Of a stretch of DNA of 64,000 nt, positions 51,235 through 61,312 are shown one piece after another. Below the pieces are notes generated by a model. That model was not told where the DNA came from. It searched no databases and worked only from the letters and a program-made list of their open reading frames with translations. Every line of letters begins with the position of its first letter. Position 1 is the first letter of the stretch. Source of the stretch: Candidatus Latescibacterota bacterium (lineage in GTDB: Bacteria; Krumholzibacteriota; Krumholzibacteriia; WVZY01; JAKEHA01); contig OY970173.1 of the NCBI GenBank assembly GCA_963707635.1, positions 864,001 through 928,000 of the forward strand, given 5' to 3'. The position numbers and the translations under genes are program-made.

Positions 51235-51314
51235 CCGGGGTGCGAGGTGAGTGGCAGGGCGGGCGATCCAAAACGCTGTACAGCAGGGCGATATATCGCT
51301 CGCAACAATCCTCG

Positions 51315-52707
51315 ATGATCGCCCTGCATGACGCCACGGTAACCTACGGCGATGGGACGCGCCCCGCGCTCGACGGGGTGTCGCTGCGCGTCGAACGCGG
51401 TGACTGGATCGGGATCGTGGGCGACAACGGGTCCGGCAAGACCACGTTGCTCACCGCCGTCGCCGGCCTGGTGGCGCTCGCCCGCGGGACGCGCGAGAGC
51501 AGTCCGGAGGTTCGCACCGCGCTCCTGCTCCAGGAGCCCGACAATCAGTTCGTCGCCACCAGTGTTCGTCACGAGCTCGCGCTCTCCGTTCCCGCCGACG
51601 TGAGCGCAAACGCGCGCAGCGCGCGCGTCGCCGAGGCGATCGCGCGCTTCGCGCTCGACCTCCTCCTGGATCGCAATCCGCACCGGCTGTCGGGCGGCGA
51701 AAAGCAGCGCCTCGCCTGCGCATCCGTCTGGCTCGAGGACCCCCACGTGCTCCTGCTCGACGAGCCGCTCGCCTACCTCGACGCCGGCGCGCGGGAGCGG
51801 GTCGTCGGTTTCGTGCGCGAAATGAATGCGCGCGGGGTTGCGGTGGTGTGGACCACACCCGACGAAGAGGACCTCGCCCTCGCGCGCCGGGTCGTGACGC
51901 TGGACCATGGTAGACTACGCGCCGGGGGGGCGCGACCTTCCTCGCACGCGAGTCCGCGCGCGCGTTGTCGACAGCGCGCGCGAGGACCTGAGCGCGCGAG
52001 GGAGGTCGTGCCCCCCTCACAGGCCGCTGCACCGTTCGTCGATCCGGTGGTCCACTTCGAGTCGGTGAGCCTTCTCGTATCGCGACGTCCCCGTGCTCGA
52101 CTCCGTCGACCTGGAAGTTCGGGCCGGTGAATGTCTGGGAGTTGCCGGTGCGAACGGCGCCGGCAAGTCGACGCTCCTGCTCCTGGCCGGGGGAGCGCTA
52201 CAGCCGGCCCGGGGCCGCGTAGAGCGTCGCGCCGCCGGTCCCGGCGGGGAAGGCGTGCTCTACCTCCCGCAGAATCCCGAGCGCCTGTTCTTCACGGAGT
52301 CGGTTCGCGACGAGATCGCGTTCGGTCTGCGGCGACGCGGGCAGTCGCGTCAGGATGCATCCGCTCGCGCGGACGACGCGCTGCGTGCGGTGGATCTCGA
52401 CCCGGCCGTGTTCGCCGAGCGCTCGCCGTTCCAATTGAGCGTCGGCGAGATGCGGCGGGTGGCGCTCGCGATCGCCGAGTCACTCGCGCCGCGGTTACTC
52501 CTCCTGGATGAGCCCGCGTCGGGCTTGGACGCGGCGGGCCGGCGTGTGCTGGCCGACCTCATCGCCGCGCGCACGGCGGCGGGCGCGGCCGTGGTCCTGG
52601 CCTCGCACGATCCGAAGGACCTTCTGGGCGTCTGCGACCGGGTGGTCACGATCGGGAACGGGCGGGCGCTGCCGGTGGCTCCTACCCCGTCCAGAAGCTC
52701 CGATTGA
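51315..52707 (+). CDS. Duplicated ECF-type ABC ATPase, frameshift near 52070
   Basis: Domain 1: GDNGSGKT, QEPDNQF, LSGGEKQR, LLDEP. Domain 2: GANGAGKS, QNPE, LSVGEMRR, LLDEP. An extra C at ~52071 separates VS and FSYRD. Confidence 0.8.
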
Positions 52708-52762: not shown

Positions 52763-53413
52763 GTGGATTATCAATCGTTTGGCGCCGTCGTGCGCCTGCT
52801 CGCCGTGGCGAGCATGTTTGTCACCGTGCTGAACAATATCTGGCGGCACGGGGACATCGATCTGACCGGACGATACGCCAACATGCGGACGATCTACGGC
52901 CGCGGGATACTCATCGGCGTCGTCATCGCGGCGCTCGCGCGCATCAACGTGGTCGCGATGCTTCGCGGCCAGCCGGCGTTCTCGTCCTACCTGCACTTCT
53001 ACGGGGTCGACCTGGTGGACGACGTGATCGGCGTCCTCGTCACCGGCGTCGCGCTCGCGTTTTTGAGCAAGTTCTGGAACGACTTCTTCGACCTGCTCTT
53101 CGAGCTCAAGCGCCTCGTTCGCGGGAAGGCGAACGCGCTGCGGGCCGACGAGCAGCCACGAGCCATGCGTGAGCCGCGCGATATGCGGGACATGCGCGAC
53201 ATGCGTCGCGGGGGCCGCGGGCGCGGATCCCGCGGGGGCGGTGGCCGCGGCATGGGTGATCGTGGTGACCGGGATCGCGGCGACCGGGACCGCGGCGAGC
53301 GGGATCGCACCGAGCGCGAGCGCGGGCGACCGGACCGACCCGATCGGCCCGAGCGACCGGACCGACCCGATCGGCCGGAGCCGCCGAGGGACCCGTTCGG
53401 TGCCAACCCTTGA
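52763..53413 (+). CDS. Membrane protein with low-complexity RGG/RGD/RPD C-terminal tail
   Basis: Three hydrophobic segments, then RDM, RGG, RGD/RD and RPD/RPE repeats; strong SD. Confidence 0.75.
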   Translation: MDYQSFGAVVRLLAVASMFVTVLNNIWRHGDIDLTGRYANMRTIYGRGILIGVVIAALARINVVAMLRGQPAFSSYLHFYGVDLVDDVIGVLVTGVALAFLSKFWNDFFDLLFELKRLVRGKANALRADEQPRAMREPRDMRDMRDMRRGGRGRGSRGGGGRGMGDRGDRDRGDRDRGERDRTERERGRPDRPDRPERPDRPDRPEPPRDPFGANP

Positions 53414-53774
53414 CCGCTATCGCCTGTTAGGGAAGAGCGGGCTTCGAGTTTCCCCGCTTGCACTCGGCACCATGACGTTCGGCACCGAGTGGGGATGGGG
53501 AACGGAGAAAAACGAATGCCGCCGGATCTTCGAGGCATACCTCGGGGCCGGCGGCAATTTCGTCGATACCGCCAACAAGTACACGGAAGGCACCAGCGAA
53601 ACCATGCTGGGCGAGTTTCTCGCCGGCCGGCGCGACACGATCGTGCTCGCCACCAAGTACACGTTGTCGATGCGCCCGGACGACGCGAGCGCGATCGACC
53701 TCGGCTATCCGCACGTGTTCCTGAAGAGCCCGAGTGTCACGAAACTCATCTACGGGGGAACGAAGATCGAGTAG
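53400..53774 (+). pseudogene. Aldo/keto reductase with large in-frame internal deletion
   Basis: AKR N-terminus (YRLLGKSGLRVSPLALGTMTFG, DTANKY, VLATKY) joined directly to an AKR-type C-terminus (ASAIDLGYPH...IYGGT); ~124 aa versus ~350 typical. Confidence 0.75.
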
Positions 53775-53809: not shown

Positions 53810-56687
53810 ATGCGTTTCGCCTCCCGCATCGCTTTCACGGTCATTGCCGCGCTGCTCGCGGGTCAATCGCCCGCGGCTCCACCATCGCGCCCGGCCCCGA
53901 CCACTCCCGCCGACTCGCTCTGGGGGCTCGTCGAGCCGTTGTTCGCGGCCGGCAAGTTCGATTCGATCCTCATCCGGCTCCCGTCCGTCATCCGCCATGC
54001 CGAGGCGATAGGGGATTCGACGCTGCTCGGCCGGGCGATCACGCAGCGAGGCCGCGTCTACCTCATGACGGGCGACCCACGCACCGTCCGCGACCTCGAT
54101 CTCGGCGTCCGGATCGCGGAGGCGATGCGCGACACGGTCGGGCTCATGCCGGCGGTCCATTTCCGGGGATTCGCGTACGCCGGGCAGGGCGACTACGACG
54201 ACGCCATGCGCTGCTACCAGCGGCGGCTATTCCTCGCGCAGCGCTCGCGCGCCCCCGCCGACGAGGCGTGGGCGCGCACCAGCATCGCATTCCTGCTGCA
54301 CCAGCGCGGGGACCATCGAGGCGCCAAGGCGGAATACCTGCGCGCGATCGCGCTGTTTCGTTCGGCGGGGCGCCCCGAGCTCGAGTTGACCGCGCTCGTC
54401 GGCCTGGGGCGCGTGGAGAGCGCGCTCGGCGACCAGAACGAGGCGATCCGTTGCTATCAGCGTGCGTGGGTCGTTTCCCGCCAGACGGGCGATCGGGTCA
54501 ACGAGATGTGGGCCACCAACAACCTCGCCGTGCTGGAAGAGACTCGCGACGACTTGAGCCGGTCGGCTGAGTACCAGAAACGCGCCTACGAGATCGCCAA
54601 GGAACTGAAATCTCCTCAAGCACTCGTTATCCTCGCCAGCAACCTGGCCACCCGCGCCAGCGATCTCGGTGATTTTGCGGGCGCGGACGCGCTCCTGGAA
54701 GAGACCGAGCAATTCTGCCGCAAGCACAACATGGAGGACCAGAACGAGGTCCGGTACCACATCGCGGAGTTGCGGCTGGTCGAGGGACGATATCGAGAGG
54801 CAGCGACCATCTTCCGGGAGCTCACGACGGGGGCGTCGCTCGAACAACAGCACCGTGACCGCGCGATTCTCGGGCTGGCCCGGGCGCTGGCGGCGAGCGA
54901 CAGTATGGCGCAGGCGCGCGCGCTGGTGGAAGCACGGCTGCGAAGCAAGGAAGAGCTCTACGGCGACGTGCGGCCATATTTCTATCTTTTCGCGGCGCGG
55001 ATGTGCGCGGATGCGAACCAGCGCGAAAGAGCACTCGAGTTCGCCACGCGCGCACGCCGGGCGGCGGAGGGTCTCGGGCAGTCGCACACCGCGGCGTCGA
55101 CCCGGCTGCGCGAGAGCGTCTATTATCGCAAGCTGGGTCGCCACGCCGAAGCGATCGCCAGTCTCGAAACCGCTCTCGACAGTCTGGAAGCGTTCCGTGG
55201 AGGGATCAGCACTGCGGAGTGGCGCGAGGTCTACGGCCAGGAGATTGCCCGAACGGTGATCGAGGCCGCGCGGGTCCTGCTCGTGTTCCCCGATTCGCTC
55301 CCCCGCGCGCGACGGGAGGAAGCGTTCTTCGACACCATGCAGCGTTTCAAGACCCGCACGCTGCTCGAGCGCATCAGCGAGCCGCGTTTCGGGTCGGACA
55401 TCGCGTCGGGTCGCTGGTCGAGCCGTCCGGCCACCATGGACGACCTTCAGGCCGTCCTGCAGCCCGGGGAGGTCGTGCTCGATTTTCTGGTCGGAGACGA
55501 GACCTCGTTCCTCTTCGCCGTCTCGCCCGACACGTTTCAGTTCGTCGAGCTCCCCGGGCCGGCTTCGCCGCTCGCCCAACGCGTCGAGCTCTTCCGGCGA
55601 CTGATCTCGAGCACGGACCCGGCGCTGCGCGCGCAGTATCCGCCCGAACGACTGGCCGTAATTCAGCGCGCCCTCGGCCGCGAGGTGCTCGGCGGCGTGG
55701 CGAATCTGGTGATCGCGTCGCAGTCGCGTGTTCGTTTCTCCTGACGGCTTCACCTCCATGGTTCCGTTCGGCGTGCTCGTGCTGGACGATTCCGGAGAGG
55801 TGCTCATGGCGGACCGCGACGTCGCGCAGGTGCCGTCGGCGAGCATCCTGGTCCGGCAACGAACCGCGCAAGCTCCCACGTGTACCGGCGCAGCGAGGGT
55901 GATGGCGGTTGCCGCGTCCGGATCGCGACTGGAAGGCGCCCGCGACGAGATCGACGACCTCGCGCGCGGCTATCGTCACGTGGTCCGGACGTCGACGCTC
56001 ACCGGTTTGGACGCTTCCACGGCAAACTCCGAGCGCTGCGATGTCCTGCACATCGCCGCCCACGCCCTCGTCGTCGACCATTCGCCGTGGGACTCCGGAA
56101 TCCGGCTCGGTCGCAACGCACCTGGCACCCCGCCGGCCTCCGGGGCTTCCACCCTCCGCGCGGACACGACGGCGATCCTTTCCACGGCGGACTCGCTGCT
56201 CGTGGCCCGCACCTTCCCCGGCGATCCGTTCCTGCGGGCGTGGCAGATCGCGCGGCTCGCGCTGCCCGCGAAGCTGGCGGTGCTCTCCGCGTGCGAGACC
56301 GCCGGGGGGCGCGTCACCAGCGGAGAAGGCACGCTCGGTATCACCGCCGCGTTCATGAGCGCGGGCGTGCCGGTGGTGGTCTCGAGTCTGTGGCCGGTCG
56401 ACGACCGGGCGACGCAGCGCATCATGCACGTGTTCTACCGGCGCCTGGCGGCAGGCGAGCCCGTCGCGACCGCGCTTCGTCTAGCCCAGCTCGAGGTGAG
56501 CCGGTCGGCAGAAACATCCCATCCGTTCCTCTGGGCGGGCTTCACGGTGGTGGGGGACGGGTCGGCGACGATCGCGATCGACAGAAAGCCGTGGGGCGCG
56601 ATCCTGGGGCTCGCGCTGACCCTGGTGCTGTTTGCGGTCGCGCTGGCCGCCGTCCGGCATCGACGGACCCGGCAGGCCGTGGGATAA
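53810..56687 (+). CDS. Exported TPR-CHAT (caspase-like) protease with C-terminal TM helix, frameshift near 55730
   Basis: Signal peptide MRFASRIAFTVIAALLAG; TPR array; VSPDG...VPF, LHIAAHA (His), VLSACET (Cys), SLWPVDD, HPFLWAGF; hydrophobic tail followed by RHRR. Confidence 0.82.
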
Positions 56688-56712
56688 TTGCCGAAGCACA
56701 TGCTCGTGCACT

Positions 56713-56780
56713 AGCGGGTGGCGCCGGACCGGGGCCCCCGCGGCGGACGCCGCGGGGTGGGACGGCGACAGGACCCGCGA
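56713..56780 (+). repeat. Dispersed palindromic intergenic repeat, copy 2
   Basis: Matches 49189-49255; loop GGAC versus TTCT. Confidence 0.85.
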
Positions 56781-56813
56781 GGTTGACGACAGAAAAGTTC
56801 CGTGTGACGAATC

Positions 56814-57416
56814 ATGACCGAGCCGTCTAAACCAATAGGGGCGGGTGCCGCGGACGAGGACCTGCTCCAGGTCGTGCGACACGACCCGGATCCGGTCCGC
56901 CGCCGCCTGGCAGCGGTCGAGCTCGTGACCCGCTATCGCGACGCGGTTTACCTCTGGTGTTACCGGTACACCCGGGACACCGAACGCGCGCTGGACGTGT
57001 CGCAGGACGTGCTCGTTACGGTTTGGGAGAAGATCGGCACATTCGAAGGGCGGTCGAAGTTCTCGTCGTGGCTGTTCTCGATCACGCGCAACCGGTGCAT
57101 CGATGGCAGCCGGCGGGTGGATATTCTGGCCGACGAGCCGATGTCGGAGGACCTGCCCGACCCGGCGCCGCTCCCGGACGCTGCGTTCGCGGATGGGGAA
57201 GACGAAGGCTGGCTGCTCCGCACGATTCGTACCGAGCTGGCGCCGGACGAACAGGGAGCGATCTGGCTCCGTTGCGTGGAGCGCCTGCCGGTCGATGAAG
57301 TAACGCGCATCCTGGGGATCGACGGCGCCGCCGGCGCCCGAGGGGTGTTGCAGCGCGCGCGGCGCAAGTTGCGCGCGGCGATGGAGCGTCGCGAAGGCGG
57401 GGGGAGGAGAGTATGA
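56814..57416 (+). CDS. ECF RNA polymerase sigma factor
   Basis: DVSQDV, FEGRSKFSSWLFSITRNRCID (region 2); region 4 ending LQRARRKL. Confidence 0.9.
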   Translation: MTEPSKPIGAGAADEDLLQVVRHDPDPVRRRLAAVELVTRYRDAVYLWCYRYTRDTERALDVSQDVLVTVWEKIGTFEGRSKFSSWLFSITRNRCIDGSRRVDILADEPMSEDLPDPAPLPDAAFADGEDEGWLLRTIRTELAPDEQGAIWLRCVERLPVDEVTRILGIDGAAGARGVLQRARRKLRAAMERREGGGRRV

Positions 57417-58074
57417 CGGAAATCAAGTGCGTCGAGGCCGAGCGAATCGGCAATGTGCTCGAGTATCCGGCTGACCATCCGGTTCGCCGGCACACGGAGG
57501 AATGCCCGCGGTGCCGGTCGCTCGTGCAGAGTTATCAGGCCTTCCTGGAAGCGGCGCCCGACGCGGGCGCGGGTGTGTCGGACGCTCGGCCACGGCTGGA
57601 CGCGGCGATCCGGCGTGGCGCCGACGCGGCATTCCCCGCGGAGTCACGCGCTCCCTTTCCAATGAAGTCGCAGGGATGGTGGCGCGCGTGGGTGCGGCCG
57701 CTTCCGGCGCTTGCAACCGCCCTGGTCATCGTGGCCGCGGCGGTGCTGCTCTGGCCGCGTGACGAACAGACCTCGCTGCTTCGTGAGAGCGGACAGGCCA
57801 CCGATGCCTGGAATCTGTCGGCCTCGGCTGCCGATGGATCGGTACTTCTGTCATGGAACGCGATGACCGGTGCCGACGCCTACGAGGTTCGCATCTACGG
57901 CGCCGAGCTCGACGAACTGCTGCGGCTCCCTTCCGCCGGGACGTCCCTCGCGGTGGATCGATCGGCTCTTCCCGCGGATCTGCCATCCGGCGCGGACCTG
58001 ACCTGGGTTGTCACCGCTCTCCGGGGCGGCGACGTGTGCAGACCTCGCCTCCGGGTTCGTTGCGGTTGCCGTAG
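57413..58074 (+). CDS. Zinc-finger anti-sigma factor (ZAS) with TM and Fn3-like extracytoplasmic domain; probable frameshift near 58035
   Basis: HTEECPRC (HxxxCxxC); TM ALATALVIVAAAVLLW; LLSWNAMTGADAYEVRIY; coupled to the sigma gene (ATGA); likely end VQTSPPGSLRLP* in another frame. Confidence 0.75.
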
Positions 58075-60540: not shown

Positions 60541-60609
60541 TGGCACAGCGGGTGGCGCCGACGGGCTGTCGGCGCCAGCACCCGCGGAGACCGACTTCAA
60601 GAGACAGCC

Positions 60610-61312
60610 ATGCTGGACCTCCGTCGCTTCGACGTCATTACTTTCGACTGCTACGGGACACTGATCGACTGGGAGACGGGGATTCTTTCCGCGCTGACGT
60701 CGTTTCGCTCCGAAAACAACCTGCGCGTCGCGGACGACGAGCTGCTGGAGAGTCTACGCCGCCCTCGAGACCGTGCTGCAAAGCGGGGATCACGTGAGCT
60801 ACCGCGAGGTGCTGCGCGGCGTCATGCGCGGACTCGCGACGCGGTATTCGGTCCCGACCAGCCGCATCGACACCGACGCGCTGGTGGCGTCGCTTCCGAC
60901 CTGGCCGCCGTTTTCCGACACGGTGGACGCGCTGCACCGGCTGCGCCGGCACTGCAAGCTGGGCATCATCAGCAACATCGACGACGAACTCTTCGCGGCC
61001 ACGTCGCTCGCGCTGGAGGTGCCCTTCGACTGGGTGATCACCGCCGAGCAGGTGCGCGCGTACAAGCCGTCGCGGCAGAACTTCGAACAGGCGCTGGAGC
61101 GGATCGGGATTCCGAAAGAACGCGTGTTGCACGCCGCCCAGAGCCGCTTCCACGACGTGGCACCGGCGAGCGCGCTGGGACTCGCCACCGTGTGGGTGAA
61201 TCGTCGGGGCGACAGGCCGGGCGCGGGCGCGACGGCGCCCTCGGACGCAACCGCGGACCTCGAGGTTCCCGACCTGGCGACGCTCGCCGACCGCATGGAG
61301 GCGCGCGCGTGA
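60610..61312 (+). CDS. Haloacid dehalogenase type II (HAD), frameshift near 60750
   Basis: TFDCYGTLIDWETGI in one frame; WPPFSDT, ISNID, YKP, HAAQSRFHD in the frame of ORF 60773..61312. Confidence 0.85.

Follow-up and report, generated by a model that had tools for sequence, protein, structure and literature searches.

The window analyzed here, a stretch of 64,000 nucleotides from a Candidatus Latescibacterota genome (GenBank assembly GCA_963707635.1, contig OY970173.1, positions 864,001 to 928,000 of the forward strand), harbors three adjacent genes that encode a TPR-CHAT protein, a sigma factor of the extracytoplasmic function (ECF) type and a zinc-binding anti-sigma (ZAS) factor with a single transmembrane (TM) helix. 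This trio is a fixture of the Krumholzibacteriia, and it forms one conserved unit, likely a trans-envelope switch in which the TPR-CHAT protein would be the cutter of the anti-sigma factor. As we envisage it, a ligand acting on the TPR domain would gate the CHAT domain, and the protease, predicted to be exported and membrane-anchored, would cut the anti-sigma factor after an invariant arginine in its linker. Loss of the Fn3 cap would then, by analogy with the protein DdvA, admit RseP to the membrane stub, and the sigma factor, once free, would drive transcription of genes encoding large exported proteins at the predicted promoter GTGA(T/C)-N15-16-(C/T)GTC. A first-pass annotation of this DNA had already proposed a module of this kind, independent of CRISPR, with the TPR-gated CHAT protein as the site-1 protease for its neighboring anti-sigma factor.

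The association of the three genes was assessed from the side of the anti-sigma factor. In a sample of 201 genomes of the phylum, 115 contain a match to an anti-sigma profile, and 100 of the 150 further matches listed were examined, those skipped being mainly on short contigs. At 93 of the 100 loci picked by the anti-sigma factor alone, a sigma gene is present, and a CHAT gene is linked to 77 of these 93 pairs (75 in the retrieved stretch and two within ~8 kb), bearing out the gene-neighborhood conservation on which the first-pass proposal depended. No CHAT gene was seen at the other 16: a contig end truncates 11 of these loci, and at the remaining 5 the surrounding 7-10 kb contain no such gene. 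The genes are found in the orders CHAT-sigma-anti-sigma and sigma-anti-sigma-CHAT, as well as divergently and convergently, sometimes with large exported-protein genes inserted, and at every trio locus TPR-CHAT protein, sigma factor and anti-sigma factor each have a gene of their own. Most members of the Atlas cluster are from Krumholzibacteriota, and a viral scan gave one weak match of 32 residues only. Among 20 CHAT loci from five genomes, the protein stops at the domain in 16 and continues into the hydrophobic tail in the other 4; three of the tailed ones are lone genes in genomes that also contain an orphan sigma/anti-sigma pair (G096, G120, G188). These three group (FastTree, 97%) with CHAT proteins whose anti-sigma factors are, in a quick tree, sisters of the orphan anti-sigma factors, and the partners thus appear to have been kept even after gene separation. 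A correlation of 0.74 between CHAT and anti-sigma distances was not counted, as it is expected from linkage. The CHAT protein is very probably coupled in function to the sigma/anti-sigma pair.

Further modules are present in the same genome. A second, paralogous CHAT/sigma/anti-sigma trio (G000:C1:76800-81000, L003) is followed by the best-scoring promoter site and a gene for a FlgD_ig-tailed protein, and its CHAT gene changes frame just before the anchor. A third module, of another type (G000:C1:793300-797200), consists of a sigma factor, a ZAS-TM-TPR anti-sigma factor with ISRS after the TM helix, and an exported TPR-CHAT protein that has no anchor and carries STLRG in a loop. In two other genomes, G069 and G085, there are 32 and 24 CHAT matches, respectively.

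The N-terminal part of the window's TPR-CHAT protein matches Pfam TPR_12 (E 5e-23) in one frame, and the C-terminal part matches Pfam CHAT in the next (E 2.5e-47, 162 bits against a cut-off of 24). The model of an orthologue (mean predicted local distance difference test score, pLDDT, of 90.5) is matched by Foldseek to separase, Csx29 and DdvA, and DdvA is also the best match of the CHAT profile in the PDB (E 6.7e-8). By its Pfam match and the caspase/separase fold of the model, the window protein is a CHAT protein of clan CD, for which proteolysis is the predicted activity. Its His/Cys dyad is invariant among 73 of 73 CHAT domains that share a mean identity of 35%, and it aligns with H862 and C907 of DdvA. 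A C-terminal hydrophobic helix (56598-56654, 19-residue Kyte-Doolittle (KD) mean 2.76) is followed by RHRR, and a hydrophobic stretch C-terminal to the domain is present in 96 of 96 linked CHAT proteins (KD 1.4-3.3), 19 of which were picked by CHAT similarity. The signal peptide of the window copy is modest (KD 1.27, from hydropathy only) and is stronger in relatives; no known sorting-signal model matched the CHAT tail above its cut-off. Pfam, motifs and hydropathy thus confirm the layout that was first read from the letters, with predicted signal peptide, TPR array, dyad, and C-terminal TM helix with basic stop, and export of the protein with its protease domain outside the membrane is predicted.

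The product of 56814-57416 is an ECF sigma factor with the sigma2 and sigma4 regions only; it matches TIGR02937 at 75.6 bits (cut-off 42.9) over model positions 3-164 of 165, and Pfam matched region 2 only. The start of the anti-sigma gene at 57413 overlaps the stop of the sigma gene, and its product has the typical layout of transmembrane ZAS factors, C/H-x(n)-HxxxCxxC with one TM helix and a gene coupled to that of sigma. The zinc set is C6 and H27xxxC31xxC34 in the window, compared with C6, H28, C32 and C35 in DdvA. NF052375 matches 31 of 73 anti-sigma factors (best E 1.4e-6), the window copy lying under the cut-off, and a search of the PDB with the anti-sigma profile, at E values up to 10, did not recover DdvA. 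Family and gene coupling suggest that the protein binds and inhibits the sigma factor. In an AlphaFold model of an intact orthologous anti-sigma factor, a helical N-domain precedes a TM helix (98-117), which is joined by a linker of low model confidence (118-127) to a domain of seven strands; for this last domain, Foldseek returned only Fn3 structures among the matches listed. The pair of ECF sigma factor and coupled zinc-finger anti-sigma factor with one TM helix and an Fn3-like outer domain, as first annotated, is therefore upheld by TIGR02937, the zinc motif and the orthologue model.

Between membrane and Fn3 domain lies the candidate cleavage site. Among 73 anti-sigma factors with a mean identity of 32%, the only invariant residues are the linker arginine (R126) and the core tryptophan of the Fn3 domain; even the zinc cysteines are conserved in 68-72 of 73. 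This arginine sits just outside the membrane in a stretch with pLDDT below 50 that is predicted to be disordered. Around it, P2 is leucine (50/73) or valine (9/73), P3 is valine in 37/73 and P1' is glycine in 47/73; the flanking columns are variable, and the distance from TM helix to motif varies, as for a linear motif. The motif can be written [LV]-R-[G/small]. A regular expression for it matched 147 of 161 library homologues, and all 14 misses printed keep the arginine with another neighbor; as controls, the same expression matches before the TM helix in 55 of 161 and, among the 206 proteins of this genome that have a single TM helix, in 45. Five homologues that have neither CHAT nor a cognate sigma factor on a separate gene (L146, L149, L150, L152, L153) are devoid of the aligned motif, which favors a link between the motif and CHAT. 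As a motif, arginine at the predicted P1 position followed by a small residue fits the site (Y-R|S) cut by HetF, the namesake CHAT protein, and arginine specificity of the HetF kind may be present. A CHAT cut at the linker arginine is, on this evidence, probable. The idea that loops of the CHAT protein carry a copy of the anti-sigma motif that co-varies with it was considered and rejected for this family, cognate pairs being not clearly above shuffled ones (54, 309, 32 and 342 of 500 shuffles were as high).

A natural fusion (L173:7028-10363, G131, P0151) joins, in this order, TPR-CHAT, a TM helix, a short basic loop, a second TM helix, an ILRG linker and Fn3. As one chain with two TM helices, it places protease and linker on the same side of the membrane, and together with hydropathy it supports the topology that a cut by CHAT in the first-pass proposal presupposed. 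The fusion has no ZAS and no sigma gene nearby, its domain order is opposite to that of DdvA, and it is found in one of seven genomes of its family; it may be a relic left by a deletion, or else a sensor that cuts itself. A weak search for longer fused forms gave one unrelated Fn3 protein only. Other arrangements of these domains were also seen: L165:9776-11248 (G085) has sigma, ZAS, TM and Fn3 in a single open frame that lacks the Arg motif and is without a CHAT gene within ~9.7 kb, and L167-L170 and L182-L185 (family f4) are short TM-Fn3 proteins without ZAS, sigma or Arg motif.

Upstream of the sigma gene, GTGA(T/C)-N14-16-(C/T)GTC is present in 61 of 103 regions, compared with a mean of 1.2 and a maximum of 5 in shuffles and 0 on the reverse strand; the spacers actually found are 15 and 16, and the window site is at 56802. 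There is thus a conserved -35/-10 pair before the sigma factor's own gene, as is characteristic of ECF sigma factors, and it is a predicted promoter. A sigma-70-like match lies at the end of the CHAT gene (3 in the region versus 0.3 in shuffles), and a similar -10 was counted, without a control, in 35 of 75 relatives. The only in-frame sigma start lies inside the promoter spacer in the window and in 15 others of 75 loci, and a sigma-driven transcript may therefore encode the anti-sigma factor alone, amounting to negative feedback. In 46 of 75 loci there is a sigma start 4-10 nucleotides (nt) behind the -10 box, a spacing like that of leaderless mRNA.

A matrix of these sites gave 40 further matches in 0.99 Mb of loci, mostly right behind the trio. 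By a hydropathy rule, 21 of 25 neighbors with a site look exported, compared with 118 of 453 without, in a comparison in which kin are not independent and the p value overstates the effect. Pfam matches of 17 site-bearing neighbors are FG-GAP, CARDB, LVIVD, RCC1, beta-helix and FlgD_ig/Por_Secre_tail, with no match for 4. Sites precede 3 of 69 genes for FlgD-tailed proteins versus 7 of 2356 others (p 0.002, with rough gene calls), and three candidate targets in this genome carry FlgD_ig. The window locus has no exported neighbor of the target type, the candidate targets being elsewhere in the genome. Three near-copies of a short open reading frame (ORF) starting MATNPC lie among exported-protein genes at G000:C1 ~786700-792600. 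A candidate for the site-2 (M50) protease, a step that the first-pass annotation named as often needed for ECF activation, is encoded in the genome, as an RseP that passes TIGR00054 and has a PDZ domain. Independence from CRISPR agrees with the finding of no Cas1 and no CRISPR-like array, in a search not aimed at Cas7-11 itself; PADLOC gave generic TPR or weak matches only.

Several observations weigh against the proposed cut, or against the scheme around it. The residue after the catalytic histidine is A, V, S, T or I, and never the canonical glycine, in 73 of 73 CHAT domains, and DdvA and separase both show His-Gly in the alignment. In separase, D2151 accepts the P1 arginine (PMC9729208); the aligned position in the CHAT domains is mostly alanine (41/73), and an arginine pocket would therefore need other acids, for which the invariant E704 and D856 could serve. 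The P4 glutamate of the separase consensus ExxR is found in 3 of 73 linkers only, and on both counts separase-like arginine specificity is not apparent. Autoproteolysis in DdvA itself remains unproven (PMC11506125). The control homologues in which the aligned motif is absent are just five, several of them mutually related. For one motif-bearing pair without CHAT (L134), no lone TM-anchored CHAT was identified among the part of that genome's CHAT proteins that was examined. Finally, a genome-wide promoter scan was not above shuffled sequence, with 24 matches above score 15 versus 62 and 69, and from it only the excess of sites before genes for FlgD-tailed proteins was used.

The main rival explanation holds that the TPR-CHAT protein is a non-cutting co-receptor, whose pocket grips the linker arginine and which keeps host proteases off the anti-sigma factor for as long as no ligand dislodges it. 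The missing His-Gly and the loss of the separase P1 acceptor would be accounted for in this way, DdvA dyad mutants have no resting-state phenotype (PMC11506125), and linkage and the invariant arginine fit equally well. The invariance of both His and Cys at such low overall identity is nevertheless hard to explain without catalysis, and the preference for a small P1' residue fits a scissile bond, so that a co-receptor of this kind is unlikely. It is more doubtful still that CHAT is an output or processing enzyme for exported targets, with another Arg-specific protease cutting the anti-sigma factor. Exported-protein genes do adjoin or interrupt the trio, the protease itself would stand under the sigma factor's promoter in the sigma-anti-sigma-CHAT order, and some sigma/anti-sigma pairs are far from any CHAT gene; the exported neighbors are, however, mutually unrelated, the window locus lacks one, the constant partner of CHAT is the anti-sigma factor, and the natural fusion joins CHAT to the anti-sigma ectodomain.

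The window copy contains two frame breaks, both of which are present in the assembly (window 55722/55724 and 58036). In run X1, two contigs that differ at 12 and 14 positions over ~194 nt are one base shorter at 55722/55724; in run X3, a contig with 3 differences over 268 nt carries an additional base behind 58036. With identities of ~93% and ~99%, these contigs bring both genes back into frame; they are short, of low depth and probably from other strains, and are not source reads. The full-length relatives that were aligned are single ORFs in 17 of 17 cases. Frame changes are found elsewhere in this single-contig assembly at 4 of 40 matches, about two of which may be artefacts of ORF calling. 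Both breaks are in all likelihood assembly errors, and the first-pass annotation was probably right to treat them as repairable. It is quite improbable that they are genuine and that the window copy of a real family is decaying. Two breaks within one locus of 4.3 kb, with frames judged without source reads, would fit decay, as would the state of the aldo-keto reductase gene upstream (window 53394-53774), which has lost a large internal part when compared with copies from the same genus; the contigs of other runs, the like frame changes in nearby genes and in the paralogous CHAT gene, and the intactness of all motifs in the window copy argue against it. Two nearby genes change frame relative to relatives, one for an ABC (ATP-binding cassette) ATPase (~51300-52700) and one for a probable HAD (haloacid dehalogenase) hydrolase (~60600-61300), both labelled from sequence and not by family search.

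Table 1. Features of the trio locus, in window positions.
Feature	Position	Strand	Basis or remark
TPR-CHAT protein gene	53810..56687	+	~957 aa if one gene; TPR superhelix, CHAT domain; one frame break
Predicted signal peptide of TPR-CHAT	53810..53875	+	hydropathy only; boundary approximate
Frame break, CHAT gene	55722..55724	+	run X1 contigs; frame switch in third-position GC (GC3)
His motif HIAAHA	56049..56066	+	second His aligns with DdvA H862
Cys motif SACET	56286..56300	+	Cys aligns with DdvA C907
C-terminal TM anchor of TPR-CHAT, then basic residues	56598..56666	+	hydropathy; relatives
Sigma-70-like promoter match, CHAT gene end	56660..56688	+	candidate basal promoter for sigma/anti-sigma
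Predicted ECF promoter TGTGAC-N15-CGTC	56802..56831	+	overlaps first sigma codons
ECF sigma factor, 200 aa	56814..57416	+	TIGR02937, Pfam
Predicted anti-sigma factor: CHCC zinc domain, one TM, linker, Fn3	57413..58074	+	frame break near end
Anti-sigma zinc ligands C6, H27, C31, C34	57428..57514	+	alignment
Anti-sigma TM helix	57701..57754	+	hydropathy; orthologue model
Linker motif SLLRES; invariant Arg124 (57782-57784), predicted P1	57773..57790	+	
Frame break, anti-sigma tail	58036..58037	+	run X3 contig; other frame matches relatives' C-terminus

The closest precedent for the trio, missed in the first-pass annotation, is DdvA of Myxococcus xanthus, a periplasmic TPR-CHAT protein fused to an anti-sigma factor and already proposed as its site-1 protease (PMC11506125). 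Both systems combine an ECF sigma factor with a CHCC zinc anti-sigma factor of one TM helix and similar CHCC spacing, and a TPR-CHAT domain whose His/Cys dyad is proposed to act in a site-1 step before RseP; DdvA truncations without the ectodomain are RseP substrates (PMC11506125), and the DdvS promoter, GTAA-n16-CGT (PMC6061681), is similar to the one predicted here. It is very unlikely that the linker is cut constitutively by CHAT, with the Fn3 piece staying bound until its release gives the signal: a tethered protease beside an exposed linker could cut untriggered, and self-cleaving anti-sigma factors of such a kind are cited in the DdvA paper, but the characterized TPR-CHAT proteases are inactive until triggered and the large TPR domain would be without a role. 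In the trio, unlike in DdvA/DdvS, TPR-CHAT stands on a chain of its own, for which a signal peptide and a C-terminal anchor are predicted, the anti-sigma factor has a small Fn3 domain at its end, the candidate site is marked by an invariant arginine, and the predicted targets are exported repeat proteins instead of CBASS (antiphage signaling based on cyclic oligonucleotides) and CRISPR genes. There is no single ZAS-TM-TPR-CHAT chain and no CBASS/CRISPR island, and RseP is available by gene presence; because of its separate chains and non-defence context the trio is not a member of the DdvA/DdvS group, although it would work alike.

Membrane-anchored site-1 proteases are familiar from DegS/RseP/RseA and PrsW/RasP/RsiW, in which a single-pass anti-sigma factor is passed on to an M50 site-2 protease; the site-1 enzyme of the trio would differ in being a clan CD cysteine protease, private to each pair. 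Separases cut after arginine (PMC11506125), and so does HetF of Anabaena PCC 7120. This membrane-bound CHAT protease, which also has a TPR domain, acts on one regulator, PatU3, which it cuts between R117 and S118, with a tyrosine before the arginine, R117A abolishing the cut (PMC9457339). In HetF the TPRs are periplasmic and a TM helix lies between TPR and CHAT, whereas both are predicted outside here, and PatU3 is not described as an anti-sigma factor there (PMC9457339). The analogy with Csx29 and Csx30 that was first suggested stands insofar as Csx29 is a separate TPR-CHAT protease of the same fold that cuts a sigma inhibitor in trans, in the type III-E system Csx29/Csx30/CASP-sigma (PMC10028731, PMC9729208); it is a more distant one than DdvA/DdvS, as Csx29 is cytoplasmic, is gated by Cas7-11 and RNA and cuts after a hydrophobic residue (PMC10028731, PMC9729208), and as the substrate here is a membrane ZAS anti-sigma factor. 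With a predicted signal peptide and anchor, and with no Cas1 or array found, the TPR-CHAT protein does not resemble the protease arm of a type III-E Craspase, which is cytoplasmic and partnered with Cas7-11.

Sigma genes of group ECF54 adjoin CHAT genes, and proteolytic control has been proposed for this group, which is described as lacking an anti-sigma factor (PMC8999054), whereas a membrane ZAS anti-sigma factor is the fixed partner here. The term CHAT is absent from the main text of the ECF reclassification (PMC7826278), and other caspase/sigma neighborhoods (PMC8195603, SAVED-CHAT preprint) are not TPR-CHAT/ZAS trios. A literature search, with most subscription journals outside its reach, gave no paper on a separate exported TPR-CHAT protein with a membrane ZAS anti-sigma factor.

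Whether a periplasmic CHAT domain serves as site-1 protease for an anti-sigma factor is the question left by the DdvA structure. In DdvA enzyme and substrate are on one chain; the trio has them on two chains, and both a P1 residue and a promoter are predicted, which makes the step directly testable. If the proposal is true, some of the many uncharacterized bacterial CHAT proteins would have a non-defence job in envelope signaling, and a first regulon would be predicted for the exported proteins with FlgD_ig tails that abound in this uncultured class. The chances are evenly balanced for the broader reading, in which every pair of ECF sigma and anti-sigma factor would be served by a membrane-tethered, separase-like protease of its own, receptor and site-1 enzyme in one, and a single cut at the arginine of the tether would switch on cassettes for large exported surface proteins. 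Such a class would be widespread, unpublished and unrelated to phage defence, a bacterial counterpart of protease-activated receptors, with DdvA as its fused form.

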